A stretch of 63,777 nucleotides of DNA, the filler included, from Planctomycetota bacterium (lineage in GTDB: Bacteria > Planctomycetota > Planctomycetia > JALXBF01): assembly GCA_026991575.1 (NCBI GenBank). It is 4 parts of 4 records of this genome, joined end to end, with 100 filler letters (N's around TTAATTAATTAA, not from the genome) between each part and the next. Parts side by side here need not be neighbours in the genome. Positions count along the whole stretch, not along the records: positions 49,867 to 57,053 come from JALXBF010000048.1; positions 57,154 to 63,777 come from JALXBF010000061.1; 2 more parts are not named here. One strand, 5' to 3'. The stretch's first letter is position 1. Each line of letters opens with the position of its first letter. Below the pieces are notes generated by a model. That model had not been told where the DNA came from and did no database searches. It saw only the letters and a list, made by a program, of their open reading frames with translations. Below are positions 2,555-63,777 of the stretch, piece by piece. The translations under genes were made by a program, and so were the position numbers.

Positions 2555-2889
2555 GCTACTCAACCGTCTATCCAACCTTGTGCACAGACCTAACCATGGA
2601 TGCGGCTCCGCGCGCGAGAACCCGCGTACGGGACAAGCTCTGTGGAGTGGAGTGTGACCGGAAGAGGCAAGGAGCAGTCAGTCAACGTTCCCGGCGTCGT
2701 TGGCCTGCCCAGCGCCTTACCGCCTATACACACTCCTCCGCCAACAAGCCACTCCGGGAAGCACTCGCACGGAAGGGAATTCCGACACAGGCAACCGGAA
2801 TTGTGCCGTTGTCAGCGTCTCCTCACACCGAGCTTATCGGCATCCGACCCGCCAAGACAGTCGGGGACTGCCTCGGCAACAACACCTCA

Positions 2890-2917
2890 AGTATACCATG
2901 CCGCGCCCCAAGGTCAA
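2890..2917 (-). promoter_or_regulatory. Sigma70-like promoter for the RRM gene
   Basis: Minus strand reads TTGACC-16 nt-TATACT with an extended -10 TG. Confidence 0.6.
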
Positions 2918-2973
2918 CCGCGATTCCCTCAGCGCGCCATCCTGGCGCAGAGCGGCACTACAATATCGCTGCC

Positions 2974-4272
2974 ATGGAGCGTGCCGCAGCGTCGCCACAG
3001 CCCGGAGCCACGATCGTCCGCCACTGGACACTGCTTGTCCTCGGTGGCCTGCTCGTTCTGCTCGGACTGCTCTTCCTGCGCATCATCCTCCCCTACCTCC
3101 TGCCCCTCTTTCTTGCCCTCGTGGCCGCCATCGTGGTGCGCCCGCAGTACGAGCGAGTTGTCGCCCTGTTTGGCGGCCGCCAACGCCTGGCAGCGTTAGC
3201 AACTTGTCTGTCAACCGTTCTTGTCCTGGTCATTCCCATCGCCACGGTTACCACGGCCCTTGCACTGCGACTGTACGTGTTCTGGCTCGACACCCGCTCT
3301 GCAGGCCGTTACGCCGAACTGGTGAGACGCTTCCGTGAGCGATTTCACATCGACGAGTGGCTCCGACAACTCCAGGATCGGTTTCCCGGCGCGATCGATG
3401 CTGATGCGATCCTGAGCGATGCCCAGGCAGCCGTGCCCGACATGGTGAGCTGGTTAGCCACGAAAACGCTGGGCGTGGCCGCGACCACGTTCGGGCTGTT
3501 GGGCGGAATCATCTCGGTCATCGTTGCCTTCGTCATCTTCGTGTTCGCCCTCTACTACTTCCTGGCCGAAGGGCCCGTGCTGCTGCAGCGTGCTACGGAG
3601 CTGATCCCATTGCCCCTGGAGTACCAGAAAAGCATCTTTGATGCGTTCACAGGCACGGTGCAAGGCGCGATCACGGCGATGTTTGTCGGCGCGCTGGCTC
3701 AAGGGCTTGTTCTTGGCCTGGGGTTGCTTGTGCTCGGCGCACCGAGTCCGCTGATCTTCACCATCCTGGCGATCCTGGCGTGCCTGATCCCGTTCGTTGG
3801 CAGCAGCCTGGTCTGGGTGCCGATGGCATTCTGGTTCTGGGTCAACGATCATCAGCTGCGCGCGATCTTGCTTGTGCTGTACGCGGCGCTGATCGTCAGC
3901 AGCGTGGACAACGTCGTGCGGATCTACGTAATGCACGGCACGGCCAAACTGCATCCGCTGCTGGCCTTGGTCAGCATCCTGGGCGGCATCGCCTACTTCG
4001 GCCTGTGGGGGGTGTTCGTGGGCCCGCTTGCAGCATCGTGCCTCTACGCGCTGGCGGAAGTGTTCAAGTGCGAGTTCAACCGGCTGACGGAAACCGCATC
4101 GACCAAGCCGCCCGCCCCGCCGCCGCAACCGGACGCCGGCGAAACGGTCGACGAGCGTGCCGATACCCGATCGGCAACAGCCCCAGCAGCCGAAAGCGCG
4201 ACTCGCAGTGACAGTTCCTCGGGCGATGCGTCCGCGTCAGGCGAGCAACAGGATGGCAACGCCGATCAGTAG
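2974..4272 (+). CDS. AI-2E family transporter
   Basis: Multi-TM protein with IPFVGSSLVWVP, DNVVR and LHPLLALVSILGG..FGLWGVFVGP. Start moved to ATG 2974, about 10 nt after a TACAAT -10 element. Confidence 0.9.
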   Translation: MERAAASPQPGATIVRHWTLLVLGGLLVLLGLLFLRIILPYLLPLFLALVAAIVVRPQYERVVALFGGRQRLAALATCLSTVLVLVIPIATVTTALALRLYVFWLDTRSAGRYAELVRRFRERFHIDEWLRQLQDRFPGAIDADAILSDAQAAVPDMVSWLATKTLGVAATTFGLLGGIISVIVAFVIFVFALYYFLAEGPVLLQRATELIPLPLEYQKSIFDAFTGTVQGAITAMFVGALAQGLVLGLGLLVLGAPSPLIFTILAILACLIPFVGSSLVWVPMAFWFWVNDHQLRAILLVLYAALIVSSVDNVVRIYVMHGTAKLHPLLALVSILGGIAYFGLWGVFVGPLAASCLYALAEVFKCEFNRLTETASTKPPAPPPQPDAGETVDERADTRSATAPAAESATRSDSSSGDASASGEQQDGNADQ

Positions 4273-6552: not shown

Positions 6553-7479
6553 TTAGCTTTCGCTCAGCAGCCGTCTGAGGTGAAAGTGGAACGGTCCCAG
6601 CTTGCCGCCGTAATTGCCCGCGCTGATGGCCACCACACCGGGACCACAAGCCGCCAGGATGCCGGCGCGCATCGCCTGCACCACCGCCTGCTCACTGAGA
6701 CCGTCGATCACGATCTCGTACACGCAGTTGACCCCGTCAGGCAATCGACTGTCGACCAGCGGCCGTAGCGTCGGACAGTAGGCGTCGTTCGTGCTTGCCC
6801 GCAGGCCTTTGTATTTGCTGCCCACCTTGCTACCAGAACGGACCACGCCGCCGGGAAACGGCGTGATCACATCGGGGACGGCGGCAATCGCTTCGACCGC
6901 CCGCGCCACGGCCGCCAGAGCCGCCTCCTGGTGCTCGGCTAGTACGAGGAAGTTGCCGCCAGCCACCCCCTTGCACGTCCCGGCAACATCCTCACAGACA
7001 AACTCCCCGTCCATCACGGGCACGCGCCACAGCCGCCGCTTGCGGCGGAGCTCGTCGCACGCACCAAGGGGATCTTCCAGGAGCTTCGAAATCTGAAAGC
7101 CGTCACCAAAGTAGCGTAGCTTCGCGCCTACGCGAATCGTCTTCGGCTCCTCAGGTAGCCCGTCGTAGCAAGCAGTCGTCGGGCACGTCATCACACACTG
7201 GCCTACCCGGTTGGCCACGGCCTCCTCGAGCTTCTCCCGGCCGAAGCCGAAAAACAGACACGCCACGCCGGGACGGCCATCGGGCGTCTGCTCGGGGTCA
7301 AGCACGGCCTCCACACCGCACTCCGCATCGCAGGCGATGACCGACGTGCCGTATCCGGTGACTTCCCGGGCCGCGATGTCAGCCCAGTACGGAGTCGCCG
7401 CGGTTACGATCAGCCGCGTCCCGACCATCGGAAACGCTTCTGCAAACGTGTCGACAATCTCCGTGCCTCGAATCCGCAT
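6553..7479 (-). CDS. fhcD: Formylmethanofuran:H4MPT formyltransferase
   Basis: [48 protein letters not shown]. Confidence 0.95.
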
Positions 7480-25064: not shown

Positions 25065-25164
25065 NNNNNNNNNNNNNNNNNNNNNNNNNNNNNNNNNNNN
25101 NNNNNNNNTTAATTAATTAANNNNNNNNNNNNNNNNNNNNNNNNNNNNNNNNNNNNNNNNNNNN
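25065..25164. other. Artificial contig spacer
   Basis: N44-TTAATTAATTAA-N44; the linker has stops in all six frames. Confidence 0.99.
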
Positions 25165-49766: not shown

Positions 49767-49866
49767 NNNNNNNNNNNNNNNNNNNNNNNNNNNNNNNNNN
49801 NNNNNNNNNNTTAATTAATTAANNNNNNNNNNNNNNNNNNNNNNNNNNNNNNNNNNNNNNNNNNNN
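49767..49866. other. Artificial contig spacer
   Basis: N44-TTAATTAATTAA-N44. Confidence 0.99.
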
Positions 49867-50396
49867 GCGTTTGACATTGACGACCTCAGTGACCACGACG
49901 GACCGATAGACGACGACACGGACAGCGACAATGACAACACGACGGGGGCGACGGACCAGTACGGTGGGATGGGCGGTTTCGCGACGGCAGGCGACAGTGT
50001 GGTGACGGAGCTCTGTGTGGAGGCGGGCGAGGAATACAGCGTGGCGGAAGCAGACCGATGGCTGGTTACGGTGCCGTTTGACGTGGTTGGCTCGGATGAC
50101 CGGGCGCAACCGGGGGACAACTATCGTGTGGGGCTGAGTGGTCACAAGAGCGACGAGCTGGGCTTTGTACGGCCGTATGAGAGCCACACGGTTCCGGGCG
50201 ATGAGCTGTTCTTGGACTGGAACGGGGATCGATCACGTAGCGGGGCCGAGCCGCTGGTGGACGAACAGGAGACGGCATACAACCTTCGGGCAAGCGGTCC
50301 CCTGGTAGTGTGGCGTTGGCTGAACGTCGAGGTGGATTCGATGGCTGGGGGCCCGGACCAGCCCGGTCCGGATGACGTGCGGTTCGACGATGTGCC
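49867..50396 (+). repeat. Near-identical to 57154-57683
   Basis: First 127 nt identical; about 12 mismatches in 530 nt by hand count. Confidence 0.95.
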
Positions 50397-51006
50397 GGAC
50401 CCGGACCTGCAAGCGCTTAGCCGGGCGATGGCTGGACGGCAGGGAGATCCCACGTTGGATTACCCTGGAGCGTTTGTTTCCGTTCGACGTGTGCGACCCC
50501 AGGGGTGGAATCAGCCCGATCTCCCCTTCGTGTACGCCTTCGCCTCCAATGGCCAGTTCCTTGTGTACGTCGTTACCCACCAGCAGAGTGACGTACTTGA
50601 GGAACAAGCGGTGCCGTCGCTGTGGTCTGTCCGTGTTTTGGGCGCGTACGAGCCTGGGCGAATCGCTCCCGGGTTAGCCGACGGTGATCCCGCTCCCGGC
50701 GAGGCTGACGCGGATGACGACCCAGAGGCGGACGACTATATTGCAGGGCTAACGGACCACATTGGTGCGGAGTACAGTGTCGTCTTCATGGAGGTCGTGA
50801 GGGACATCGCGGCCGATCTAGGAACAACATTCGACCACTTGAACGCGTTCATAAGCGGTCACGAAGTTGGGCATCAGTTCGGGTTGGCAGACTTAGAAGG
50901 TAATCCCTCTGTGACACTTATGGACCGTGAAGACGCTGGCGGACCCGATTCATGGAGGTGGCGGGAACAAGAGATCCAGAAGATGCGGCAGACCTCCCTA
51001 CCGTGA
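49867..51006 (+). CDS. C-terminal part of a large exoprotein ending in a metzincin domain (variant A; 5' truncated)
   Basis: Open from the contig start (AFDIDDLSDHDG...); HEVGHQFGLAD zinc motif followed by an LM Met-turn candidate. Confidence 0.8.
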   Translation, partial: AFDIDDLSDHDGPIDDDTDSDNDNTTGATDQYGGMGGFATAGDSVVTELCVEAGEEYSVAEADRWLVTVPFDVVGSDDRAQPGDNYRVGLSGHKSDELGFVRPYESHTVPGDELFLDWNGDRSRSGAEPLVDEQETAYNLRASGPLVVWRWLNVEVDSMAGGPDQPGPDDVRFDDVPDPDLQALSRAMAGRQGDPTLDYPGAFVSVRRVRPQGWNQPDLPFVYAFASNGQFLVYVVTHQQSDVLEEQAVPSLWSVRVLGAYEPGRIAPGLADGDPAPGEADADDDPEADDYIAGLTDHIGAEYSVVFMEVVRDIAADLGTTFDHLNAFISGHEVGHQFGLADLEGNPSVTLMDREDAGGPDSWRWREQEIQKMRQTSLP

Positions 51007-51037
51007 CCCCGCTGGCACTCTGCGGAGAGGACTGGCC

Positions 51038-52525
51038 ATGCGTGCTGATCCACATCGTGCTTCGACAGTGTTCGTTCTATGCGTTGGAACGCTGCTGACG
51101 TTGGGCACGCGCATCGTGGCTGAAGAGGACGACCGAGGTCAGTCTCGGCCCTTCCATAGCCTATTCGCCCACCCGGAGGTAACGCTCACAGCTCTCGGTG
51201 GGAGGTATGTTCCGACACTGCACCGGTACGTCCGATGCGTGGCGAGCTTTGCACGGCGAACACCGAGTCCGGAGGAGGTGCTTGTGTACGAAGGGGTGTT
51301 AGCCGTGCTGCGTCACGCACGTCCTGACCAAATGGCCATGGACTTCAACTACGCCTGGCGCCACTTTCAGATCGTTGGCATTTTGGCCAAGCGGCCACAT
51401 TTTAGCCTGACAGAAGATTTGTTGGACATCGTCGAATCTCATCTGGGAGGCCTACAGGTCGTCGGGCTACAAGGCGGAACGGCATGGTCTCGTACAAGAC
51501 ACATTTACCGTTCTGGTTTCTCGGCGGTGGTTGACCGACGTATGGTTCAGCGCGCACTGCGGTGGAGAAGAAGCCCGTCCAGCACTCTCCGGGCTGTAGC
51601 CGAGTCCTGGTTGCGAGAACTCGGCATCCGGGACGAGAAGTCCATGCCAAATCCATTCTGGCCCTACCGTCGGGGGGCACTCCTAATCGTGGACTCCTGG
51701 AACGGTGGCCCCTCGCCAGGATTTTCACTGCATTGGCACCCGCCGCTCGGGAAGCCTGCGTCCGTTGACCTGGCTGAGCTCATCACCGCACAGGCAGCAC
51801 TCCGGTTGGTCGAACAAGCGCTTCCGCGGAAGGTACCCACCCGCTCGCGGGGAACTGCTGCAGCGGCCGCCACGCTGATGCCATACGAACTGGATGCTGG
51901 CGGCGCGATGGCCCGCATAATCGAAGACGAGTCGCTGCCGACCTGGATGCGGTTCCAAGCCCTGGAGTTGTTTGTTACTCGATCGGCAACCTATGACCTC
52001 GGTTTGCTGAGACGTTTGGCGCTGCCAGCCGTGGAGGGATTCTCGGCCGAAATCATGGCCCTGGGTGCAGTCTGCGCCTTGAGCCGGTGCCCGACGAAGC
52101 GGGCGCTTGAGCTGCTGGTGGATGTCGTGGAGCAGGGCCACGAGTCGGCGCGTTTCCAGGCGGCGTCGCATTTGCGGTTCGTTGCTGGCCTCAAAGTCCC
52201 CCCGCTGGTGGCATGGTTTGACGTGGAGGAACAACACCAGGCGGAACCGTGGCGTAGCCCAGGGGCATGGAGTGACGTGGCACGGTGGATCGTGGACGAC
52301 ACACTGCGAGCGACCGTGGTACGAGACCTGCGGGATCAGGTGAAACGCCTGCCGGAGAACTGGCCCGGAACGAGGCTTTATGACCTGGAACCGTTCTTCC
52401 TGCATCAGCATCCGGCGCCATGGTACCTTGAGCAACATGGCATACCGGAGGTCGTGCTGGAACGCAGCAAAGGCGAGGACGTCTTCTGGATGCCGCATGA
52501 TGGGCAGACGGCGCAGGCAAGGTAG
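51038..52525 (+). CDS. Signal-peptide HEAT-like protein, putative immunity/inhibitor (variant A)
   Basis: GAGG RBS, hydrophobic leader, helical repeats (ALELLVDVV..GHESARFQAASHL); paralog of 58345-59709. Confidence 0.7.
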   Translation: MRADPHRASTVFVLCVGTLLTLGTRIVAEEDDRGQSRPFHSLFAHPEVTLTALGGRYVPTLHRYVRCVASFARRTPSPEEVLVYEGVLAVLRHARPDQMAMDFNYAWRHFQIVGILAKRPHFSLTEDLLDIVESHLGGLQVVGLQGGTAWSRTRHIYRSGFSAVVDRRMVQRALRWRRSPSSTLRAVAESWLRELGIRDEKSMPNPFWPYRRGALLIVDSWNGGPSPGFSLHWHPPLGKPASVDLAELITAQAALRLVEQALPRKVPTRSRGTAAAAATLMPYELDAGGAMARIIEDESLPTWMRFQALELFVTRSATYDLGLLRRLALPAVEGFSAEIMALGAVCALSRCPTKRALELLVDVVEQGHESARFQAASHLRFVAGLKVPPLVAWFDVEEQHQAEPWRSPGAWSDVARWIVDDTLRATVVRDLRDQVKRLPENWPGTRLYDLEPFFLHQHPAPWYLEQHGIPEVVLERSKGEDVFWMPHDGQTAQAR

Positions 52526-52648
52526 CCAGCCCCATGCTGCCGAGAGTAGCGGACGTCGCTCATGCACAAGCGTGCCAACCGGAACGCGCTGTGGAATCAG
52601 AAGCACGTCCGGGATGTGTTCAACTGTCGGATTGCAGAGTACGCGGAC

Positions 52649-52996
52649 GGTCCGACCGGCCCTGAGTCGGAGCGGTTCACGTTTGTGCTGCATGATCTGG
52701 CCCAGCCGCCGACGGCCGAGCAGGTGGCTCAGGGCGGGCTGGCTCCGTATGTGGATGGCATCTACGCGAGTGCGCTCTTTGCGGCGAACCCACTGGCGGA
52801 CTTTACGGATCCGGACACTTCGGACGGCATCACCCCGCAGCTAACTGAGCGGCGTCTGTACGCCGAGGCGGTCGACGCCCTGCTTGCCCGCGAGGACGCC
52901 CTCGGCGAGATCACCTTCGACCTCACCGACTACCTGGGCAGCATCCGCGCCTGGACCGATGCCTCAGGCGCAATCCTGGAGAGCCTTGCCTATGAG
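52649..52996 (+). repeat. RHS core segment shared with 61281-61628
   Basis: About 17 mismatches in 348 nt by hand count. Confidence 0.92.
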
Positions 52997-53385
52997 AGCT
53001 ACGGGCTGCCGCTAGGTATCCCGCCCGTGCGGTCCCGCTTTGGATTCACGGGTAGGGAGTGGATCGGTTCCTCCGACGACTGGTTCGCTCGGGCGAGGTA
53101 TCTGTCGCCGGTAGTTGGCCGGTTCCTGACACAAGATCCCCTGGGTACCGTTACATCGGTGGCCGACGTCGGCGGTTACCTGTATTCGGGCAACAGCCCC
53201 GTTACTCACAAGGACCCGCTCGGTTTGTGGCGGGTCGGTGTGGAAGTGTGCGTGCCTGTTTTCGTTCCCTTCTGGTTCAATGTCGTGTGCGTTGAGCTGT
53301 CGGTCGGTACGGGCGGTGTCGGCGTCTACGTGGGTTATGGCGTAGGGCTGCCTGGCGTCGAACTAGAAGTCGGTCCAGGTGCTAA

Positions 53386-54549
53386 GAATCTGTCCGGAAA
53401 TTCTTTGTGCCGGGTGCGAGAAAGAGGTGTATGGGCAGGGGAAGGTGGCGAGCGGTGGTAGATGCGGATTCATGGAGGTGATAGGTGGGCCGGAAGGGCC
53501 TGATAGGAGAGTTATGGTGGATAGCGTCCCATGAGTGTCGGTGTGATCAGGGTGATCTAGAGGTGTAAACGCAGGAAGCTCGGGCAGACGATTCCGTACT
53601 ATCCGGGACAAGGGGCGATGGCACGGCGCACCTTCTTCGGGAGGGCACGTAGGACATAGTGCCCTGCGGCGAGGGCGACAGCGGCCAGATAGCAGCACCG
53701 CTTGCGGGCCCAGCACAAGCGTACCCCTCGGAAGGACTTCAGCCAAGCTGCGGCGCGTTCCGTGTTGGCCCGCACCCGACGCACCTTCTTCGACGCTCGC
53801 CTGTAGGATGCACGCCGCTTGGCGAACCGTGGCGTGAAACCGTACTCGGCCGCTTGCTCACGCGCCTGGTTGTAGTCATAGCCCTTGTCCGCGACCAGCT
53901 CAGGTCGGATCTTGCCCTGGGCCAACGCGTCCAACACCGGCCCTGCCAACTCCGCCAACGTCTCGCCTAAGAGCTTGAAGTCCGGGATGTTCGCTCCAGC
54001 CACATGCAGGGCCAGTGGCACACCCGCCTCGTCCACCGCCACGGACACCTTCATGCCTTCCTTCCCACGGTCTGCCGGATTAGGCCCGCTGCCCTCACAT
54101 CCCAGTGGGGCCGGCACCAGGGTGCAGTCGATCCCAAGCCGACGCAGCTGCGCCCGACCATCTTCGACGTACAGCGCCACCAGCAACAAGTGCAACAACA
54201 CGAACACCCCAGCCTCAGCCCACCGCTTGAACCACTCGTGTGCCGTGCTCCCGTTGGCCAGCTCATCGGTCGCTGGGATGGCTCTCCACTGGCGTCCCGT
54301 ACGCATCCGATACCAGATCGAGTTGCAGATCCGCCTCAGCGATGTGGCCGGACGACCTCGCCGACCCGGGCCAGACCGCGGCCCAACGCCCAGAGACTTC
54401 ACAATCACCTTGATCAACGCTACAATTGGCTCCGGACAGCGATAGCGAGCGTCCATGCGACGCCTCCCTGCGTTGGGGGTCTGTTTGCCTAACAACAACC
54501 CTCCCCGACGCAGGGAATTTTATGCGTTCAGCATTTTCCGGACAGACTC
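53386..54549 (-). mobile_element. Complete IS5-family element (1164 bp)
   Basis: TIRs GAATCTGTCCGGAAA / GAGTCTGTCCGGAAA (14/15); TAA target duplication at 53383-85 and 54550-52. Confidence 0.93.
53599..54456 (-). CDS. IS5-family transposase
   Basis: RTGRQWRAIP, F.RW...GVF, IDCT, VDEAGVP, ADKGYD, ERAAAWLKSFR; GGGAGG RBS before ATG 54456. Confidence 0.92.
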   Translation of the reverse strand: MDARYRCPEPIVALIKVIVKSLGVGPRSGPGRRGRPATSLRRICNSIWYRMRTGRQWRAIPATDELANGSTAHEWFKRWAEAGVFVLLHLLLVALYVEDGRAQLRRLGIDCTLVPAPLGCEGSGPNPADRGKEGMKVSVAVDEAGVPLALHVAGANIPDFKLLGETLAELAGPVLDALAQGKIRPELVADKGYDYNQAREQAAEYGFTPRFAKRRASYRRASKKVRRVRANTERAAAWLKSFRGVRLCWARKRCCYLAAVALAAGHYVLRALPKKVRRAIAPCPG

Positions 54550-54739
54550 TAAACCGCCAGTCGGCCCGGCCGTCGACATTGGCGTGACGCCGCCTTGGCC
54601 AGGGTATGCCGGCGTCGACGTCAAGATATCAGGAGTTAATCAGGGGCCCCCACCCCCTGCCCCGCATTGGGGGTTGACCCTAGGTACGCCAGGTTTCGAG
54701 GTAACCTACGGTTACCAGTTCTGACACGGCGTCCCGACG

Positions 54740-55216
54740 GTGACGTACTGGCTAGCCTTCGGGTTCATAGTGCATGACTGGCGTGGTGGAGCTTACTGGC
54801 GCTGTGGCGCCAACCGGGCGGGCATCGCGCTGGTTTGGGTTGGCCCGAGAACTATCCGACTACTTATTGTGGGTCCAATCAGGATTAGATTCTGGCGCCC
54901 CTTCCGGACCAGGATTTCAGCGCGCCACGACAGGACAACCCTAGTGGTCCAGTGGGTGGGCTTCGTTGGGCGGACTCTGGCATGGCTCGCTGCTCATCTA
55001 GAGTTGGTAGCCATCCGCCTGACTGGAGAGTGGCACATCGTGCTGTCCCATCCTCAATGGGTTAGGCGATCCCTGGTGCAGGAGTTGAGGAGTCAGGGAT
55101 TCAGAGTGCGGAGTTGTCCGCTAGGCGGACTGGCCGCTGTTCAAGCAGTTATCTGTCCGCCAACGATGCTGAAGAGTTGTTCACGAGACGACGCGTCACC
55201 AACTCTCTGCCGGTGA
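54740..55216 (+). CDS. Putative immunity protein for the upstream RHS toxin
   Basis: 158-aa ORF starting 15 nt after the toxin stop; positional inference only. Confidence 0.5.
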   Translation: MTYWLAFGFIVHDWRGGAYWRCGANRAGIALVWVGPRTIRLLIVGPIRIRFWRPFRTRISARHDRTTLVVQWVGFVGRTLAWLAAHLELVAIRLTGEWHIVLSHPQWVRRSLVQELRSQGFRVRSCPLGGLAAVQAVICPPTMLKSCSRDDASPTLCR

Positions 55217-55315
55217 GGGCGCACGGGCGTAACGGTTCACAGGGCACTGACTCGTTGCTGGGCAGGGAGGCGTTACCGCTACGGGGGGGTAGAGACGGCT
55301 TATGCTGAGTGAGGG

Positions 55316-55968
55316 GTGCGATGGAGCGACAACCCGGAGCGTGCCCGTTCAGCGAGGTGGAAGTCCTCGCCAGGATTCGGTCTGGACCCTGTAGCCGGAG
55401 GTAACTGCGTCTTCGTGAGGGGGCGTGGGGAGCAACCGGAGGCGAACGAGTAGTCCGCACGAGAGGAACCCGATTCGGCCTGACGTCGTGGCGAGCCTGC
55501 CGGGTACTGGCGGAGCCCAAGATGCGTTGTCGGGAGGCCAGGTCAGCATCCGGGGGAAAACAGACCGATCCGGATGGCGACGTGGGGTGGTTGGGGGCGG
55601 AATGCTCGGAAGGTCCGACGACGTGAACGACGGAGGCCTGATGGGCACAGGACGCGAAGAACCTGCGGTACATCAGGGTAAGGGGGTGGGCCCTGTAAGA
55701 CGTCCCCCGGCCAGCCGCTTGGTGCTCGGCGGACTGGAGCGAACCAGAGCACCCAACCGACAGGAGAAGCGGCCCATCAGGAGTCAGAGGGTCACAAGCA
55801 AGCGAGGAAGCGGGGTAATGCCCGTGGAGCGAAGGGACCCAGGAAGGTGGCTGCGTGGAGAACAGGGCTGCGGAAGTGACACCACCGTCCGGAGAGCCGT
55901 ATGCGGGAGAACCGCACGTACGGTTCGGAGGGGGCGGGCCCCGGGCAACCGGGGCTTGCTACCCCTGT
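55316..55968 (+). ncRNA. ORF-less group II intron (about 653 nt)
   Basis: 5' GTGCG; DIII with GGGTAATGCCC..GGAGCGAAG; 49-nt DIV hairpin; canonical DV 55894-55926; DVI with GCAA loop and bulged A55961. Confidence 0.88.
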
Positions 55969-56193
55969 CTCTGTTGATGGGTAGCGCGGGCAGTACCGGT
56001 TTTGTTTTTTTCTACCTCCCATTTCAAGAATCCCCCGACGTCGCGGACCCCGTCCGCGGGGTCGGCGGGGCGGATTTGCGCGCACCGCGCATCTAAAGAA
56101 ACGCAATCACCCTAGCCGCGGGCGGGATCGACCCCTGCGACTCGGCGGCGAAGAAATCTTTCTTGGGGTACGCCGGCGCTACCCCTGAACCTT

Positions 56194-56224
56194 GCGGCAG
56201 GGGGGCGTAAAACCCCCCTGCCGC
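56194..56224. repeat. Perfect 12-bp GC-rich hairpin
   Basis: GCGGCAGGGGGG-CGTAAAA-CCCCCCTGCCGC. Confidence 0.8.
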
Positions 56225-56569
56225 TCATCAAGGCAGGCTGGCGGGTTCAGTCAGCCATCCCCGCGGCAGCGTCTGGGCTACTCGTGGTCGCCTGTTGCCG
56301 TGGCACGGAGTTCTGTACCGTCTACCCACCGGACCGCCTCGGCGCCGCGTGGTTCCGCTTCGGTTGGAGGGCCGTTCAGCTCGCCAGCTGCCGTGAACTC
56401 ACGGGAAGGGGGCTCTCTCGCCCCCCGATGCGCGTCGAAGCGTCTGCGTTCAGCGCGGGGGAAGTGCTCAGCACCGGCTCGCAGGACGTCCTGGAAACGG
56501 CCTACCGGGGGCCCACACGGAAAAGCAGAAACGTACCGAGCTGAGGTGCAGGGGTTCGCAATCGGTGCC

Positions 56570-57053
56570 TTACTCGCGCCCCTCGGCCACGTACAGCGTC
56601 TGACCAATTACCGCAACCGTGCGCTGAGGCTGTTCCGACTGTTGACGGGACCACTCGTCGGCACTGTGCACCAGCCAGACCTCGCCAGCAGTGGTCGATC
56701 CTTTCGGCTCCCACTGCGCACGTAGCCCCACCTGAACCGGCATCATGCTGGTCATCCGGACCGTTGGATGGGACGGCAAAGCGTCCAGCCAGCGCGCCAG
56801 GTATGGGTAATCGGCCAGGACGTTAGAAGCCAGGTTGCCTACCGCCAGATACGCAGCGGGCGGACGCCCGAACGCGAACAGGTTCACATAGGCATGCCAG
56901 TGGGCGAAGCTACTGAGCGTACTGCCCAGTTGGGCAGCAATCAGTGCGGCAACGACCCACCGAGCCCTGCGCAGCCGAGCGACAACCACTGCCCCCCCGA
57001 CCACCAGGAACGGCCATCCGGCAAGCCAATACCGAAACAGGCCGACTTTGCCC
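56570..57053 (-). CDS. C-terminal part of a membrane glycosyltransferase (ArnT/PMT-like; 5' truncated)
   Basis: Open from the contig end: GKVGLFRYWLAGWPFLVV, TM helices, HWHAYVNLF. Confidence 0.55.
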
Positions 57054-57153
57054 NNNNNNNNNNNNNNNNNNNNNNNNNNNNNNNNNNNNNNNNNNNNTTA
57101 ATTAATTAANNNNNNNNNNNNNNNNNNNNNNNNNNNNNNNNNNNNNNNNNNNN
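57054..57153. other. Artificial contig spacer
   Basis: N44-TTAATTAATTAA-N44. Confidence 0.99.
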
Positions 57154-58311
57154 GCGTTTGACATTGACGACCTCAGTGACCACGACGGACCGATAGACGA
57201 CGACACGGACAGCGACAATGACAACACGACGGGGGCGACGGACCAGTACGGTGGGATGGGCGGTTTCGCGACGGCAGGCGGCAGTGTGGTGACGGAGCTC
57301 TGTGTGGAGGCGGGCCAGGAGTACAGCGTGGCGGAAGCAGACCGATGGCTGGTTACGGTGCCGTTTGACGTGGTTGGCTCGGATGACCGGGCGCAACCGG
57401 GGGACAACTATCGTGTGGGGCTGAGTGGTCACAAGAGCGACGAGCTGGACTTTGTGCGGCCGTATGAGAGCGACACGGTTCCGGGCGATGAGCTGTTCTT
57501 GGACTGGAACGCGGATCGATCACGTAGCAACGCCGAGCCGCTGGTGGACGAACAGGAGACGGCATACAACCTTCGGGCAAGCGGTCCCCTGGTGGTGTGG
57601 CGTTGGCTGAACGTCGAGGTGGATTCGATGGCTGGGGGCCCGGACCAGCCCGGTCCGGATGACGTCCGGTTCGACGATGTGCCTGATCCTGACCTCGAAT
57701 CCCTGAGCCGGGCCATGGCCGGCCAGCAGGGAGACCCCATGCTGGACTACCCTGGTGCGTTCGTCTCGGTGCGACGTATGAGACCGGCTGAGTGGAACCA
57801 GCCAAGTCTGCCGTTTTCCTATTGCTTTGACCACTGGCAGCAGTTGCGGGATTATGGTACCGCCAGTAGACAGAGCTTCCCACTCGAAGCGGCGGCGCTC
57901 TGGGTGGTTCACGTGGTAGGCGCCTACGAGGGGGGGAACGGGGCGGCTGGCGCAGGGAGCGATGACGGCGACCCGTGTCCGCAAGACGCAGACCACGACC
58001 CGGACGGCGAGGGTTGGCGGGCCGGAATCACGGTATGGCCGCCTTCGCCATGGGTTCCAACGGAAGAGGAGACGTCGTTTGTGTTCGTGGAAGTCGCCCG
58101 CGACTTGAGCGCAGCCATGGGCGGTTTGCCTGTCAACGAAACGATTTCGCATGTAGCCGCACACGAGGTGGGGCACCAGTTTGGGCTTGCCGACGCTGAC
58201 CGGCACCCCGAGGATCATCTGATGGACGCGTGGGATCTCGCCCAGGGCCGCAGCGCTTGGCGCTGGTTGGAGACAGACATTCAGCAAATCCGAGAAACGG
58301 TGACACCCTAG
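57154..58311 (+). CDS. C-terminal part of a large exoprotein ending in a metzincin domain (variant B; 5' truncated)
   Basis: Same N-terminal part as variant A, divergent C-terminus that keeps HEVGHQFGLAD and LMD. Confidence 0.8.
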   Translation, partial: AFDIDDLSDHDGPIDDDTDSDNDNTTGATDQYGGMGGFATAGGSVVTELCVEAGQEYSVAEADRWLVTVPFDVVGSDDRAQPGDNYRVGLSGHKSDELDFVRPYESDTVPGDELFLDWNADRSRSNAEPLVDEQETAYNLRASGPLVVWRWLNVEVDSMAGGPDQPGPDDVRFDDVPDPDLESLSRAMAGQQGDPMLDYPGAFVSVRRMRPAEWNQPSLPFSYCFDHWQQLRDYGTASRQSFPLEAAALWVVHVVGAYEGGNGAAGAGSDDGDPCPQDADHDPDGEGWRAGITVWPPSPWVPTEEETSFVFVEVARDLSAAMGGLPVNETISHVAAHEVGHQFGLADADRHPEDHLMDAWDLAQGRSAWRWLETDIQQIRETVTP

Positions 58312-58344
58312 AGCCGGCAGGAACGCTATCTCAGGAGGGTCGCG

Positions 58345-59709
58345 ATGTTGGGGGCTACCCCAGTGATCTGTGGAATCGTTATGCTTTTGGCCGCGCAAGT
58401 TGCAGTGCCCGCCCACATCCCTAAACAGCGGTCCCCTTCCGATGCTGAGATATTAACGGTCCTGAGCAGTCGGTTGAACGGGTTGGCGAACCGGAAGTGG
58501 GACGTCGCCTGGCAGTATCGCATTCCCGTCTGGAACGAAGTTGCGCTGTGGGAGCTATCGCTGTGCGTGCTTCGATCTGTAGAGCCAGAGCAACTGGTCA
58601 ACGGCATCTCGCTGGAGGGTGTTCGATCGACGTACACGCTTGAGAGATTGGTTCGTGGGGCATGGCATTCGGCGCTGACGATTGAGATTGCGGACCTTGT
58701 CACAGCTAAGTACACGGCCTTAGCCGATAACAGCGAGGTCGCCCCGATATGGAATCTCGCTTTGCAATTTCCGTGCCTAGATCGGCGTGCGATCCGGATT
58801 GCCGAAGGCTGGCTAGACAGCGACAGTCCCCATCTCCGCAGGCTTGGAGCGCAATGGCTCAAAATGACAGCTTCCCGTCAGGAGTGGCCCTGGAGGCGAC
58901 AAGAGCCGTGGTACATCTGTATCGGGATAGGTAGCCGAGACCCGCGCAAGGGGATTCGAAACACGCTGCGCCACAATCCGGTGTGGCCCTTGGCTTTCCT
59001 TGACGAGCGCACAACAAAGGTCACACCGTCGACAGTGCCTCGCCCGTTGGCAGAGCTGCCGCGAGATATCCGAGCAGAAAGGGTTCGCATGCTGCTTACG
59101 GTTGTTCGCGATCCGGATTGGGACCTGTACCTCCGCTACAGGACACTTGACCTGCTGACGCGGGCCGAGGGGTGGTATGACTTGGCAACCTTGCGTGACC
59201 TGGCGATGTCAAAGCGTGAGGGACTGGCTTCAGAGGTCATGGCCCTAGGCGCGGTGTGTGCGTTGAGCCGGTGTCCCACGAAGCGAGCGCTGGAGCTGCT
59301 GGTGGAGGTAGTCGCACAGGGCCACGAGTCGGCTCGCTTCCAGGCGGCATCGCATTTACGGTTCGTGGCCGGTCTGGAAGTGCCCCCCCTGGTAACCTGG
59401 TTCAACGTGGCGGGACAACGCCGCGCGGAACCGTGGCGACAGCCCGGAGCATGGAGCGATGTCGCACGATGGATCGTGGATGATGCTTTGCGAGCCCACG
59501 TGGTGCGAGACCTGCGGGCTCAGGTTAAGCGTCTTCCGGAGAACTGGCCAGGCGCCAAACAGCCCGAGTTGACACCGTTGCTTTTGCACGATCATCCCGG
59601 TCTGTGGTACGTACACCGGCACCGCATACCGGAGATCGTGTTGGAGCGAAGCAAAGAAGAGGATGTGTTCTGGGTGCCGTACAAGGGCGGGACGGAACGA
59701 ACGCCGTGA
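58345..59709 (+). CDS. Signal-peptide HEAT-like protein, putative immunity/inhibitor (variant B)
   Basis: AGGAGG RBS, signal peptide; C-terminal ~150 aa closely match variant A, N-terminal part strongly diverged. Confidence 0.75.
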   Translation: MLGATPVICGIVMLLAAQVAVPAHIPKQRSPSDAEILTVLSSRLNGLANRKWDVAWQYRIPVWNEVALWELSLCVLRSVEPEQLVNGISLEGVRSTYTLERLVRGAWHSALTIEIADLVTAKYTALADNSEVAPIWNLALQFPCLDRRAIRIAEGWLDSDSPHLRRLGAQWLKMTASRQEWPWRRQEPWYICIGIGSRDPRKGIRNTLRHNPVWPLAFLDERTTKVTPSTVPRPLAELPRDIRAERVRMLLTVVRDPDWDLYLRYRTLDLLTRAEGWYDLATLRDLAMSKREGLASEVMALGAVCALSRCPTKRALELLVEVVAQGHESARFQAASHLRFVAGLEVPPLVTWFNVAGQRRAEPWRQPGAWSDVARWIVDDALRAHVVRDLRAQVKRLPENWPGAKQPELTPLLLHDHPGLWYVHRHRIPEIVLERSKEEDVFWVPYKGGTERTP

Positions 59710-60425
59710 GCGGGGCTCGCTTGCTGCGAAAGACGATCTGCCTCCCGGCTGGACCGTTGCGCCAGCAGGCGGTTTTTCCTTGCCGTGATGCCACACCGAG
59801 CGTTGAGCCTCGGAGCGCGGCCAGGGGCACCGCGAGTTCGCGGTACCGTCGCGTGTGTGCGACCACTCGGCACTGCGACGGTCAGCCCAGGCAAGTGAGT
59901 CGCTTGGAAGCGCAGCCGGCCTCGACTGCAATTACGCCCTTGAGACGGTGGCACGCTTGCCGGTTAGCGCCCACAATCCATAGTTTCCTGAAGCGGCGCG
60001 GCACGGCGCAGTCGACGCGGGCCTAACTGTCTGGCCGGAGGCCGAGCCAGCGTTCGGCCGAAAAAGTGGCAACCCAGCGTTGTCTTGCCTAGTCGGCGCT
60101 ACCGGCTCACGGGGACGGATCTCTCGAAACGGTGAACCCGAGACGCAACCAGAGACCGAGAATGTCGAGCGTCATTGTAGGCCCTCTGCGGCTTCGTGAC
60201 TTTGGGATCTCAGCCCTTGTTCCAAAATCGAGACGAATGGGGATGCCGATTCTGTGAGCCGGTAGGCCATCGTATGAAAACGCGTGTCTTTGCAGTGGAG
60301 CCCACCCGGCGTGTCAGCGTGGGGACTCTGGACAAGCCCCTCGGAGAGCACGTTATGATGGACGACATCAACACGCTGCCGCTGAGTTCCTTCATTGAAG
60401 ATGATGTCGCGCGCCGCTGACCGCC

Positions 60426-62383
60426 GTGTGTGATCCGAATCAGACGTATGCGTTGACGTACGACGTGCTGGGGCGAGTGGAGAGCCTGGACAATGCGGAC
60501 AGTCCGTCGATCTATCCCCACGTGGTGCTGGTGAACCAGTACGATCCGAATGGGAATCGGACCTCGCTGACGGATAACTACGGTACGGAGTGGTGGTTTG
60601 AGCATGATGCGCTCAATCGGCTGACGAAGGCCGAGTTGGTGGTGGACCAGGCGGTGAAACCGGTGGCGGAACTCAGTTATGATCCCGCGAGCCGGTTGAC
60701 CCAGATCGTGCGGTACCAGCCGGGGACGGCGGGTAGTGGGTGGATGGATCCGCAGCTCATCACGACCTACGGTTACGATCCGGCATCGCGGGTTACCTCG
60801 ATTGACCACGATTACAAGGATTCGCAAGGGAACGTCAGTGGGCTACAGGACTTTGCGTACACGTGGGATGCGGCCGGTCAGATTGTGAGCTACGTTGGTC
60901 CGGAGGGGACGCGCACGTATGGGTACGATCCGCAGGGTCAGTTGACGGACGTGTGGGATGGCCAGGGGAACCTGGTCGAGTACTACCGGTACACGCCGAA
61001 TGGCAATCGCACGGAGTCCCACCTGCACGGGACGGGCTACGTGACCGGAGCGGACAATCGGCTGCTGTCGGATGGAACCAACGACTACGAGTACGACAAC
61101 GAAGGGAACCTGATTCGCAAGACGAACACGGTGACCGGTGAGGTGACGGAGTACACGTGGGACTACCGCAACCGGCTGACGGCCGTGGTGCACAAGGATG
61201 GCCAGGGCAATGTGCTGTGGACTGAGACGTACGTCTACGATGCGTTCAACCGCCGGATTGCGTTCTATGAGGACCCCGATGGTCCGACCGGCCCTGAGCC
61301 GGAGCGGTTCACGTTTGTGCTGCATGACCTGACTCAGCCGCCGACGGCCGAGCAGGTGGCTCGGGGTGGGCTGGCTCCGTATGTGGATGGCATCTACGGG
61401 AGTGCGCTCTTTGCGGCGAACCCGCTGGCGGACTTCACCGATCCGGACACTTCCGACGGCATCACGCCGCAGCTAACTGAGCGGCGTCTGTACGCCGAGG
61501 CGGTGGACGCCCTGCTTGCCCGCGAGGACGCCCTCGGCGAGATCTCCTTCAACCTCACCGACGACCTGGGCAGCATCCGCGCCTGGACCGATTCCTCAGG
61601 CGCAATCCTGGAGAGCCTTGCCTATGAGGCGTTCGGCCTACCGATTGGCGGCTGGTCAAGCAGCTCGCGGTTCGGATACACGGGCCGCGAATGGGGCGGG
61701 CCCAGTGCCCTGTGGGCCATGCGGGCACGCTACCACGGGCCCGCTACAGGGCGGTTTGTGTCGTCAGATCCAATCGGCCTCCGTACGGACCACATGCCAC
61801 ATCGCTACGCGGGGAACGATCCAATTGCCGCGCGCGACCAGTTGGGACTCTTTGTATCGACAGGCGACGCGCTACCGATATTTGCCCCGGGTGGAGGTTG
61901 GTCGGAGAAGCTCGTTCAGGGCATTAAGGGGCTGGGACAGCGAATCCGGGATAGGTTCAAAGAGGGATGGGAGAGAACAAGGGAGCGGTGGGAGGAACTC
62001 AGGGGACCTGACTTCAGGAGAAAGCTCAAATGTGCGATATTGGCATCCGGTTTCGCCCTTGAGGTAGATGCAGTTCTACTAGGGCTATTGATCGCTGTAT
62101 TCCCCGAGAGCGGTGGTATTGGAGACGTCCCCAAGTGGCGGTGGCCGTCTTGGCTGCGCTGGGATTCCTCGCGACCGCGCACGAGCAGCTGGACCACATA
62201 CGAAACGTCTGCAAGGGACTTGGCCCCGGAATGGAACAGAAGTTTAAGGAGATAGAGAAAAAGATCCAGCGCACTGAAACAATGGTCGACGGCTTGGAGC
62301 AACAGTATCCGGGACTCTTGGACAAGCTAGCCCCGTCACCACGCCGAAAAGGAAAACCGACGCATGGCCCAAGGGCGGAGTGA
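60426..62383 (+). pseudogene. Orphan RHS/YD-repeat toxin with a 1-nt frameshift in the toxin domain
   Basis: Many YD repeats, YTGREW, GRFVSSDPIG, PIAARDQLGL. Adding one C at CCCC 62129-62132 joins ORF 62135-62383. Confidence 0.85.
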
Positions 62384-63090
62384 GGGGCGCTACTACTAAC
62401 ATGGAGGCCCTGAGATCGCGGGCCTTCGGACCATCACACAGCAGGGACCTCTCCATGGATCAGATAGCAGAACGCGACATCGAGCTCCTTGCAGAGCGTC
62501 TGAGGCTGGCCTACGCAGACGCGGATCGATTGAGATACGCCCTGTCCATTGAAAGGACGTCGCGGAGCCGCGTCCGGCTCGGCGTCGGGTTGGCGGCACT
62601 GTCGGCAAGCACGGTGGGTTGGCTGCTTCTCGTCTTGGTGGACGAGGACGGCCTAGCGCTAGTCGCGTTTCAGTTAATCCTCCTTTTAGTGGGTGCTGTC
62701 TCAATAGAGTCCATGCGGGTATCGTTATGCGAACTCATCCAGGCCGTAACAAGATCTATCCTTGACCAGGGCTCTAACGTACTGACGCTGAATCAGCGGG
62801 ACGCGTTGCGTCACCTAGCGACGACACCACGCCGGCGGGACTGGCGTCTGATCCAAGGCATCGGGGGTGCTGTCGCCGTCGCCGCCTTCGTCGCAGTCCG
62901 TGCGGCGCCGACCGAAGGGGCGTCTACGATGACCTGGTCGAGCCTCGGGGTGTTTGCGATGCTGTGGCCGCTGGTTGCCAGCAGAACCCTGTTGAATTAC
63001 GAGCTGTTGGCAGCCTCCTTGTGGAAGCTCTACGAGGGAGAGGACGCGCCGTCCTGGCGGGACCTGCCTGGGCCGACGCGGCAGGGGTAA
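62380..63090 (+). CDS. Four-TM membrane protein, putative immunity protein
   Basis: Directly follows the toxin (GTGA overlap; ATG 62401 or 62455 also possible); two TM hairpins. Confidence 0.65.
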   Translation: MRGATTNMEALRSRAFGPSHSRDLSMDQIAERDIELLAERLRLAYADADRLRYALSIERTSRSRVRLGVGLAALSASTVGWLLLVLVDEDGLALVAFQLILLLVGAVSIESMRVSLCELIQAVTRSILDQGSNVLTLNQRDALRHLATTPRRRDWRLIQGIGGAVAVAAFVAVRAAPTEGASTMTWSSLGVFAMLWPLVASRTLLNYELLAASLWKLYEGEDAPSWRDLPGPTRQG

Positions 63091-63236
63091 CACACTTGGG
63101 ATAAGGTAGCTGGTGGTACGTCTGAGGCCCTTGGACTGGGCTAGTAAGGCTCTAGTCAGAGGTTGCATTGGCGAGGCGATCATGGCAAGCTGTCTCGGCT
63201 TGAGGAGCCTAGAAACGAGGACAGCGAAGGAATGTC

Positions 63237-63777
63237 ATGGTTCGGACGAAGAGGATTGCTTTGGTGGAGCATTTGTCAAGGGCGCCGGACCGACGGCGGC
63301 AGTGTGCGAACGTACGCGATCCGCAGGTGAGCGTACTTGTGCTGGCGTTGTGTGGGATCCTGGGTGGGGTAAGGAGTTTTCGAGCGATTGAGGCGTACTG
63401 CCGTAGGAACGAGACGTTTGTTTGCGAGTGGCTGGACTTGCCGCATGGGATTCCGTCGCACGACACGTTTGCCCGGGTGTTTCAGGTGGTGGACCCTGAG
63501 GAGGTGATTGGGGCGTTGACGGAGTGGCTGTTGGACTTGCGTGCCCGTCGTGGGGAGGGCGGTCGGCCGTTGGTGGCGATTGACGGGAAAGCGTTGCGAG
63601 GGACGCAGCGTGGGCGGTCTGGGGGCGCGGTGCTGCAGGTGGTGACGGCGTGGGCCACGGAGGCGGGGCTGGTGTTGGCCCAGGTCGGGTCGGAACCGGA
63701 CACGAACGAGACGGCGGTGATTCCGCATCTGATTGATTTGCTTGAACTAAAGGGTGCCATCGTGACGATCGACGCGG
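63237..63777 (+). mobile_element. ISAs1-family (H-repeat) transposase, 3' truncated by window edge
   Basis: Not in the ORF track; translation from ATG 63237 gives GIPSHDTFARVF, AIDGKALRG, NE, LKGAIVTIDA. Confidence 0.92.

Follow-up and report, generated by a model that had tools for sequence, protein, structure and literature searches.

Two contigs of a Planctomycetota genome (assembly GCA_026991575.1) were analysed, each carrying the 3' part of a gene for a putative secreted zinc protease of the metzincin type and, directly after it on the same strand, a gene for a partner protein with a hydrophobic N-terminus. They are the third and fourth contigs of a DNA stretch of 63,777 nucleotides (nt), which as a whole is called the window. 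The comparison of the two copies revealed that their variation is concentrated in a block across the gene boundary. The beginning of the protease fragment is nearly identical in DNA and the C-terminal part of the partner is conserved in protein, and the end of the protease together with the N-terminal part of the partner has diverged strongly. The pair is read as a diversifying protease with a cognate inhibitor, or immunity-like protein, as its partner, and the chances of this reading are taken to be about even.

The protease gene and its variable tip

The identity between the two contigs was followed along the protease gene. It amounted to 97.7% (518/530) over 49867-50396, to 75.8% over the 120 nt of 50397-50516 and to about 46% beyond. 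The codon-wise comparison gave the order of this fall. In the block 50407-50496 (30 codons) 25/30 residues were identical and 14 of those 25 codons differed synonymously, and in the blocks after 50496 the identical residues numbered 10-15 of 30. The result is in agreement with an earlier note on this DNA, made from the sequence, which had described tails of about 98% nt identity up to 50396/57683 and a drop that began at synonymous sites and reached the protein later. The HEVGHQFGLAD motif, the acidic DGDP...D.D.DP loop and the LMD motif, which the note had reported for both tails, were also all present in both contigs. The tails as a whole showed 71% protein identity (BLASTP, E 6e-170), and the similarities of the two copies in protease and partner far exceed chance.

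The two arms that bracket the variable block differ in kind. The 5' arm holds 0-4 synonymous differences per 30 codons, and such near-identical DNA points to a recent recombination or gene conversion event or to a collapsed repeat. The 3' arm, which codes for the C-terminal part of the partner (52053-52495 against 59237-59679), has 77% nt identity (E 7e-94) with 11-12 synonymous differences among the 21-28 conserved codons of each block, suggesting an old divergence held by selection at the protein level. The mirror-image conservation proposed in the note was thus retained at the protein level only, the arms being unequal in DNA. A third conserved tract (52563-52996 against 61189-61628, 89% nt identity), of which the note made no mention, belongs to an RHS core.

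The closest genomic relative of the protease (63% identity) is the locus L001, on the contig JALSID010000064.1 of a Planctomycetota metagenome-assembled genome (MAG). With it and with database proteins six distinct tips were distinguished, namely those of contig 3, contig 4, L001/P0001, P0002, P0057 and P0058. All six share an almost invariant segment of 60 residues (VWRWLNVEVDSM...YPGAFVSVR), after which the pairwise identity is 39-64%. In DNA the comparison with L001 gave a similarity of 72%, which ended at 50486 in contig 3 and at 57773 in contig 4, and nothing was detectable beyond these points. The invariant segment forms the first strand, the first helix and the second strand of the catalytic domain in the model of the contig 4 protein, so the variable part would make up the other two thirds of this domain. 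The later two thirds of the domain hold, in metzincin structures, the elements of the substrate cleft, that is the rim strand, the surroundings of the active-site helix, the Met-turn and the C-terminal helices. Judged from the alignments and the model, the variation of the tip appears to be allelic diversification of one domain, not a swap of toxin folds. The variable tip of the earlier note was confirmed as regards its sharp junction, which is found in all six variants and in the DNA comparison with L001; it is not a swappable module, as the tips are homologous and diverge from a point within the catalytic domain. The motifs of the catalytic scaffold are kept in all tips. In the database fragment P0057 (225 amino acids, aa) the zinc motif reads HEVGHQFGLNQ, with Gln at the third-ligand position, and this could be an inactive allele or one with another zinc ligand.

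No Pfam or NCBIfam model reached its threshold in the protease, and PADLOC returned 0 matches among the six proteins scanned. The sub-threshold matches to Pfam models and PDB sequences were to M10/M12 metzincins only, those of Pfam being weak matches of Reprolysin, Matrixin and Zincin at the zinc motif. The Tox-MPTase models, which are presumably contained in the Pfam copy searched, were not among the matches of the protease. An HMMER search of 1.84 billion representatives gave 52 relatives at E <= 1e-3, two of them at E <= 1e-30. The homologous region is C-terminal in these relatives, and HExxH lies near the C-terminus in 41/52. Their N-terminal regions are diverse (signal peptides, Ig-like, TIG and dockerin-like parts), their lengths range over 120-1291 aa and many of them are fragments. 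The family is recognised by the motifs FDxDDPS, PGDNFRV, LTVWRxLxVEVDSMG, DVPDPD, YWxxYVxGxYE, DNDPD and HEIGHQFxL, by LM about 10 residues later and by a terminal IRxxxxP. Among the aligned relatives H337, E338, H341 and M357 were invariant (12/12), and M357, which belongs to the LMD motif, stood 10 residues after the third ligand in all 12. The third-ligand position 347 is D in 6 and H in 4 of the 12 relatives and D in both contigs, and the Gly position of the zinc motif varies (G, T, Q, E, L).

The contig 4 protease fragment was modelled from 39 sequences with a predicted local distance difference test (pLDDT) score of 76 and a predicted template modelling (pTM) score of 0.80. The model consists of a disordered acidic stretch (1-55), a beta-rich part (57-160) and an alpha/beta catalytic domain at ~150-385 (about 235 aa). 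All solved structures among the matches listed by Foldseek were metzincins (ADAM17, archaemetzincin, fragilysin and matrix metalloproteinases). The best match was ADAM17/TACE with E 6.2e-4 and a probability of 0.99, and the archaemetzincins reached template modelling (TM) scores of 0.53-0.60 relative to the target (0.60 for 3lmc). Matches at E <= 1e-3 numbered only two, so the support for the metzincin fold is moderate; the best PDB profile match had E 0.0057 and was not significant. On motifs and model the first gene is taken to code for a putative secreted zinc protease of a metzincin-type family that has no Pfam model. This is in accordance with the metzincin assignment of the note, with the zinc motif and the Met invariant in 12 relatives and the best solved-structure matches all metzincins.

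The narrower assignment to the snapalysin type, also made there, had to be given up. The snapalysin (MEROPS M7) chains 1c7k and 4hx3 gave E 0.14 by profile, and no snapalysin was among the listed fold matches, which were led by ADAM17 and archaemetzincin. Snapalysin is a small single domain with a fixed Asp ligand; here D and H alternate at the third-ligand position and the catalytic domain of ~235 aa follows a beta-rich domain. The protease is therefore called metzincin-like and not snapalysin-type.

The probable extent of the whole protein was obtained from L001. In this locus the protease frame runs open through 780 codons from the start of the contig, and the fragments of contigs 3 and 4 align to its residues 408-780. 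The L001 protein thus has 407 more residues upstream than the fragments, and its overall length is ~780-800 aa. The N-terminal end of the frame is Arg-rich and holds '...VESLEQRT...', a like stretch being present in the relatives P0015 and P0038. An N-terminal signal of the LExRxLL type occurs in secreted planctomycete proteins, and the L001 stretch resembles it in sequence. The 780-residue open reading frame (ORF) contained 0 Pfam families at E <= 0.1 and showed neither a trafficking domain nor RHS repeats, the very N-terminus being absent from both L001 and the window. The Pfam and NCBIfam scans of the contig 3 and contig 4 tails likewise gave no RHS or other repeat domains. The search with the body (L001 residues 1-410; proteins of 429-1365 aa) returned only L001 itself and no alternative C-termini. 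The whole protease would thus have ~800 aa and would not be the tail of a giant exoprotein. The exoprotein tail of the earlier note is not upheld, since the sole full-length relative adds 407 residues with no recognised trafficking domain.

The partner gene and the two-gene arrangement

The partner gene starts 31 nt after the protease stop in contig 3 (ATG 51038) and 33 nt after it in contig 4 (ATG 58345), in each case with a GGAG-type Shine-Dalgarno-like sequence. The note had placed a protein of 450-500 aa within about 35 nt, and both figures agree with the spacers and with the lengths found (495 and 454 aa, with hydrophobic N-termini and the contig 3 start at 51038). The N-terminal ~270 aa of the two partners are identical at 60/269 positions (~22%) and the C-terminal 180 aa at 128/180, so that the divergent N-terminal and conserved C-terminal parts described before were found again. 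Among the relatives the C-terminal arm has 48-71% identity, against ~22% for the N-domains. The search of 5.8 billion protein clusters with the partner gave three matches, which were the contig 4 partner itself, the contig 3 partner and P0054 (467 aa, 49% identity). The L001 partner is the fourth, with 488 aa, and its gene lies 18 nt after the L001 protease gene. All four have a variable N-terminal part (the first about 300 aa in contig 3) and a conserved C-terminal part. The N-domain of P0054 was nearest to that of contig 4 (113/265) and the tip of P0002 nearest to that of L001 (92/162); no conclusion is drawn from this.

The fold of the partner was approached by several methods. The best NCBIfam match was weak (NblB, E 0.043), and the comparison of the partner profile with PDB sequences gave nothing meaningful. 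The model of the contig 4 partner is all-alpha. It is confident only at residues 240-345 and 375-410, which coincide with the conserved arm, and this confident part is made up of paired helices. Its Foldseek matches were ARM/HEAT solenoids, weak ones with E no better than 1.5e-3 and TM-scores of about 0.2. The Atlas neighbours were HEAT_2 clusters at 0.92-0.94, but the recognition value of 2093 is below the reliable range. The strongest indication was given by the more distant loci L005, L002 and L003, in whose partners the Pfam model HEAT_2 was found with 44.4, 27.4 and 21 bits (cut-off 27.7), and hhalign matched the partners of the window type to these HEAT_2-bearing partners with a probability of 76% and E 2e-5 over the 37 most conserved residues. 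A HEAT-like alpha-solenoid is plausible for the partner from these comparisons. The HEAT-like nature claimed in the note stands to that extent, and no Pfam family matched the two window partners themselves at E <= 0.1. The complex prediction for protease residues 140-385 with partner residues 25-454 gave a score of 0.02 and a mark of 0.32, which is no verdict and is counted as evidence neither way.

A zinc-motif pattern taken from the 12-sequence alignment led to 16 loci, which are L001 and fifteen more distant ones. The distant loci are from MAGs of the Fervidibacter type, Acidobacteria, Planctomycetaceae, Leptospira, Nitrospirae, Saprospiraceae, Chitinophagales, Fimbriimonadia and Phycisphaerae. 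In 13/15 of these loci a large ORF finishes with the metzincin domain, and directly behind it, on the same strand, lies a second ORF with 178-482 codons and a hydrophobic N-terminus. L004 and L009 depart from this pattern, their match lying within a longer ORF. The matches span just ~75-190 residues around the zinc site, so the kinship of these proteins to the window protease is distant. A profile hidden Markov model of the four partners, run against all ORFs of the 16 loci, matched the L001 partner only, and the window type of partner thus seems confined to a close clade.

The partners of the different loci fall into at least three groups by BLASTP. The HEAT-type group contains those of contigs 3 and 4 and of L001, L002, L003 and L005. 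The second group comprises the partners of L006, L008, L012, L014, L015 and L016, whose Atlas neighbours are unnamed clusters, and the third those of L007 and L013. The partners of L010 and L011 gave no match. The family is spread over MAGs of Planctomycetota, Armatimonadota-like bacteria, Bacteroidota, Acidobacteriota, Nitrospirota and Leptospira, with the two-gene architecture conserved.

An irregularity was observed in L003, where the metzincin gene (1901-3428) is split into at least 2 frames (ORFs 1901-2548 and 2549-3235). The database protein P0003 (316 aa), near-identical to L003, covers the later part as a single ORF. The sequence of the split gene points to a pseudogene or a sequencing error.

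Genomic setting and the probable assembly branch

The features of the window are summarized in Table 1. The gene content of contigs 1 and 2 is housekeeping, with a formylmethanofuran-tetrahydromethanopterin (H4MPT) formyltransferase, DUF6807 and several GFO/IDH/MocA oxidoreductases, a gene set associated with Planctomycetota. The formyltransferase is a marker of H4MPT-linked one-carbon (C1) metabolism, which is typical of Planctomycetota. Further copies of the protease or partner gene were not found in these two contigs by blastn and tblastn.

Table 1. Positions of contigs, genes and motifs along the window
Feature	Position	Strand	Remarks
Contig 1	1-25064		
Formylmethanofuran-tetrahydromethanopterin formyltransferase gene	6556-7479	-	Contig 1; Pfam FTR and FTR_C
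Artificial N/ttaattaattaa/N spacers	25065-25164, 49767-49866, 57054-57153		ORFs crossing a spacer are artefacts
Contig 2	25165-49766		
Contig 3	49867-57053		
Contig 3 metzincin gene, 3' part	49867-51006	+	379 codons and TGA; 5' end cut by contig start
Contig 3 metzincin constant arm	49867-~50400	+	
Contig 3 AFVSVR, limit of protein conservation	50470-50487	+	
Contig 3 metzincin variable part	50488-51003	+	
Contig 3 HEVGHQFGLAD	50860-50892	+	
Contig 3 LMD	50917-50925	+	Met-turn candidate
Contig 3 partner gene	51038-52525	+	495 aa (P0055), hydrophobic N-terminus
Contig 3 partner, conserved C-terminal arm	~52010-52495	+	Putative HEAT-like VCALSRCPTKRALELL... segment
Contig 3 orphan RHS fragment	52562-53461	+	Core end (TIGR03696, E 9.7e-12) and short hydrophobic Gly-rich tip; 37 nt after partner stop
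IS5-family transposase gene	53599-54498	-	Contig 3
Group II intron match	55892-55968	+	Rfam RF00029; 54.6 bits, E 1.2e-8
Contig 4	57154-63777		
Contig 4 metzincin gene, 3' part	57154-58311	+	385 codons and TAG; 5' end cut by contig start
Contig 4 HEVGHQFGLAD	58162-58194	+	
Contig 4 LMD	58219-58227	+	
Contig 4 partner gene	58345-59709	+	454 aa, hydrophobic N-terminus
Contig 4 5'-truncated RHS fragment	60405-62255	+	YD repeats, core end and a different C-terminal tip
236-aa ORF, hydrophobic by eye	62380-63090	+	Directly after contig 4 RHS tip; weak sub-threshold MASE2 match, E 0.095
ISAs1-family transposase gene	63237-63776	+	Contig 4; runs off contig end

Downstream of the partner both contigs carry RHS fragments, which are 5'-truncated and look like orphan RHS toxin cassettes from their sequence. 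The contig 3 copy is cut ~255 residues further into the core. That of contig 4 is preceded by ~700 nt without a recognisable gene, and its region 60426-62252 matched RHS_repeat (E 7e-29), TIGR01643 (E 4.5e-17) and TIGR03696 (E 3.8e-14). The position of the 236-aa ORF behind the contig 4 tip suggests an RHS immunity gene. The description of the system as non-RHS in the earlier note is correct for the protease gene itself, and it has to be qualified for the surroundings, where 5'-truncated core-plus-tip fragments come right after the partner in both contigs. The shortness of both contigs is probably due to the mobile elements IS5 and ISAs1. Near the group II intron match no reverse-transcriptase ORF was found, with 0 Pfam families in 9 ORFs (six around the intron and the others in the contig 4 spacer); the match may be an intron remnant or an ORF-less group II intron.

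Around the pair of L001 no RHS or insertion sequence (IS) context was found, so the RHS link would be local to the present genome and not part of the module. Downstream of that pair there are two paralogous ORFs (L001 4349-6043 and 6382-7428) with hydrophobic N-terminal stretches. They share a hydrophobic C-terminal stretch '...APWLWI.LVAC..AGLLWWLRSRMRGAGE', and no Pfam family was found in either.

Contigs 3 and 4 begin at the identical base and are identical over exactly 127 nt, the first mismatch being at offset 127. The prefix looks like the overlap expected at a branch of a de Bruijn graph with k=127, where two branches leave one node. The upstream part of the protease gene, of roughly 1.2 kb, would then be shared or collapsed, on a contig outside the window. 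The tips recur in the protein database, that of contig 4 as P0056 on a 3677-bp contig and that of contig 3 as P0059 on a 5142-bp contig, both contigs starting near the junction. The variants P0002, P0057 and P0058 are known only as fragments; they too begin at the junction or close to it, and their contigs have 970-1703 bp. The junction thus seems to be a recurrent break point of assemblies, as is expected if several variants within one sample share the 5' part. All these observations favour an effect of assembly or binning, by which the two copies would be two alleles of one locus from co-existing strains, or a collapsed repeat, with a shared upstream node. The regions downstream differ in structure between the contigs (RHS fragment length, IS type), however, and this fits two loci as well as two haplotypes. 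An assembly effect is given an equal chance of being right or wrong, and it concerns the organisation of the genome and not the function of the genes. The probable origin of the 'two copies' from a graph branch limits what can be stated on copy number, and the pair serves as a worked example for genome interpretation, in which two apparent copies would come out of one branch.

Proposed mechanism, rival readings and related systems

The locus is proposed to be a two-gene operon. The first gene would encode an exported zinc metalloprotease with a C-terminal metzincin-type catalytic domain, and the second a Sec-exported (or signal-anchored) alpha-solenoid protein of the HEAT-like kind. The partner would bind the protease and keep it inactive or harmless in the envelope of the producer, acting as a cognate inhibitor or immunity-like protein. 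Several forms of the locus exist in natural populations, and the block that begins directly behind the second strand of the catalytic domain and reaches ~2/3 into the partner gene may be replaced as a unit. Outside this block both genes stay conserved, that of the protease in its 5' half and that of the partner in its HEAT-like 3' end. The variable protease segment would cover the parts that line the substrate cleft. A joint change of this segment and of the partner N-domain is what a specificity race between enzyme and inhibitor might produce, and it could also shift the range of substrates or targets. The mobile and conflict-rich setting, with orphan RHS tips, IS5, ISAs1 and a possible group II intron remnant, makes us lean towards a use against competitors. 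It is doubtful, all the same, that the pair represents an undescribed secreted effector/immunity system of Planctomycetota and other environmental phyla, with a Sec-exported metzincin as the weapon, a large periplasmic HEAT-repeat immunity factor and specificities arising through one recombination cassette. Such a cassette would extend over the two thirds of the catalytic domain that bind the substrate and over the immunity N-domain. Its exchange would be a colicin-like diversification of a protease, without the bodies of RHS, contact-dependent inhibition, type VI secretion or other known delivery systems.

The polymorphic toxin proposed in the earlier note would, in the strict sense, have a constant delivery body, interchangeable C-terminal toxin cassettes and dedicated immunity genes, and would serve contact-dependent or secreted killing of relatives. 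The sharp constant/variable junction common to the six variants agrees with it, and so does the partner immediately downstream in 3/3 linked close pairs and 13/15 distant loci. The metzincin domain of the distant relatives is always C-terminal behind very different N-regions (Ig-like, dockerin-like, TIG), and orphan RHS tips and IS elements adjoin the pair. The consulted part of PMC3482391 moreover lists Tox-MPTase1-5 without known immunity proteins, and Imm-HEAT as a type of immunity protein. Nevertheless, the 780-aa L001 protein has no trafficking, repeat or pre-toxin domain (0 Pfam families), and the search with its body (L001 1-410; proteins of 429-1365 aa) gave itself only. The six tips all represent one and the same homologous domain (39-64% identity), and their junction falls within the catalytic domain. 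No orphan metzincin-tip/partner cassettes were seen downstream, where the orphans are RHS, and for an immunity protein the partner would be unusually large. The junction and the adjacent exported partner are what remains of the polymorphic toxin, and in the strict sense it is considered unlikely. With no delivery body, homologous tips, an intra-domain junction, no orphan cassettes and a large partner, the more general protease and inhibitor reading was preferred, at the level balance given at the outset.

An ordinary secreted protease, nutritional or matrix-degrading, could also be accompanied by a membrane-anchored chaperone or temporary inhibitor like that of CpaA/CpaB, and the variation would then reflect substrate adaptation or escape from external inhibitors. 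CpaB is encoded beside CpaA, has an N-terminal transmembrane anchor and blocks the active site of CpaA (PMC7542363, in the part consulted), and the single hydrophobic segment at the N-terminus of the partners could be such an anchor. Many distant members look like large secreted multi-domain enzymes and L001 has no toxin context, which fits as well. For a housekeeping chaperone, however, an N-domain with ~22% identity beside a near-identical 5' protease arm is unexpected, both copies lie amid RHS orphan fragments and IS elements, and the partner families differ by lineage, as immunity and inhibitor genes often do; the explanation is rated improbable. It is very improbable that the downstream gene is a mere neighbour with no physical or functional tie to the protease. 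The binding of the two proteins is inferred and the partner families of the distant loci are unrelated in sequence, which would suit an accidental neighbour, but the spacing of 31-33 nt with ribosome-binding sites, the arrangement kept in 3/3 close and 13/15 distant loci of several phyla and the variable block that spans the gene boundary all speak against it.

Several points weigh against the reading as protease and cognate inhibitor itself. The physically linked pairs are three only (contig 3, contig 4 and L001), too few to establish the co-variation of protease tip and partner proposed in the note, and the two window variants may be alleles of two strains and not two loci in one genome. The activity of the protease, its export, its binding by the partner and its inhibition are predictions from sequence and models. 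The TM-scores to the top fold matches are modest (0.29 relative to the query and 0.40 relative to the target), and with the Gln of P0057 at the third-ligand position some alleles may be inactive as enzymes. In the partners of contigs 3 and 4 there was no Pfam HEAT match at E <= 0.1, the model of the contig 4 partner is poor overall (pLDDT 52.8, built from 4 sequences), and the hhalign probability of 76% and the Foldseek E values of at least 1.5e-3 amount to leads. A tie of the pair to a conflict island does not hold generally, as L001 has no RHS or IS context. Typical immunity proteins are several times smaller than the partner. The known metzincin inhibitors are so too, the potempins having 98-132 aa (PMC9890683, in the part consulted) and the partner 454-495 aa.

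Genetically linked pairs of peptidase and inhibitor are known from other bacteria, serralysin/Inh being one of them. In Tannerella forsythia the KLIKK-peptidases, which include metzincins, are linked to and co-transcribed with a specific exported potempin that protects the envelope of the producer (PMC9890683, in the part consulted). The present pair is similar in that a presumably secreted peptidase is genetically linked to a predicted exported partner. The potempins are described in the same part of PMC9890683 as beta-barrel lipoproteins encoded by the upstream gene, whereas the partner here is encoded downstream, is ~4x larger and is all-alpha in the model, and the pair is hypervariable. 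CpaB of Acinetobacter is membrane-anchored in the periplasm, binds the metzincin CpaA 1:1 and blocks its active site until secretion (PMC7542363, in the part consulted). In the present locus, too, a metzincin gene adjoins a gene for a putative membrane-anchored protein. Unlike CpaA/CpaB, the present proteins showed no detectable relationship to either of them in the searches run; CpaB is moreover needed for export by the type II secretion system, and the consulted part of PMC7542363 describes no hypervariable cassette for this pair.

Zhang et al. 2012 described the metallopeptidase toxin domains Tox-MPTase1-5 and Tox-HopH1, the MPTase domains without an immunity protein, and Imm-HEAT paired with the nuclease Tox-REase-7 (PMC3482391, in the part consulted). 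The likeness lies in a C-terminal HExxH domain in secreted proteins and in HEAT-repeat immunity proteins, which occur in Planctomycetes as well (same part of PMC3482391). The Tox-MPTase domains are carried there on RHS or other delivery bodies, whereas the present proteases match no Pfam family at threshold and have the sub-threshold M10/M12 metzincins as their nearest. Toxins of the Tox-MPTase kind and HEAT immunity are thus already known separately, and not together as far as the consulted part of PMC3482391 goes. A pairing of a metzincin with a HEAT-repeat inhibitor was not found described in the open-access literature. If the effector/immunity reading were true, a metallopeptidase toxin domain would for the first time have an immunity partner, and a broad family would exist in which a C-terminal metzincin is joined by an exported partner from at least three families.

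The protease itself adds an uncharacterised metzincin family without a Pfam or NCBIfam model. It shares with adamalysin/ADAM17, archaemetzincin and fragilysin the HExxHxxGxx(H/D) site, the later Met, the mixed beta-sheet and the active-site and C-terminal helices. It is unlike ADAM17, archaemetzincin and fragilysin in having 10-14% sequence identity to them, a Gly that is not conserved and the motifs LTVWRxLxVEVDSMG, DVPDPD, YWxxYVxGxYE and DNDPD of its own.

In the pairs of nuclease colicins and immunity proteins (E2, E7, E8, E9) the homologous catalytic domain and the adjacent gene for its cognate binder diverge together, and the rest of the toxin gene is nearly identical. The variation of contigs 3 and 4 is similarly concentrated across the gene boundary. 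The colicins are plasmid-borne and have defined receptor-binding and translocation domains, and their immunity proteins are small and cytoplasmic. The present locus differs from them in its metzincin enzyme, in its predicted exported helical-repeat partner of 450-500 aa and in having no recognisable uptake domains. Should the partner prove to be a cognate inhibitor or an immunity protein, it would provide a new inhibitor scaffold, an alpha-solenoid against a metzincin. The six tips and at least four partner N-domains would then form a matched natural series of variants for the evolution of protease-inhibitor specificity, as the colicins do for nucleases.

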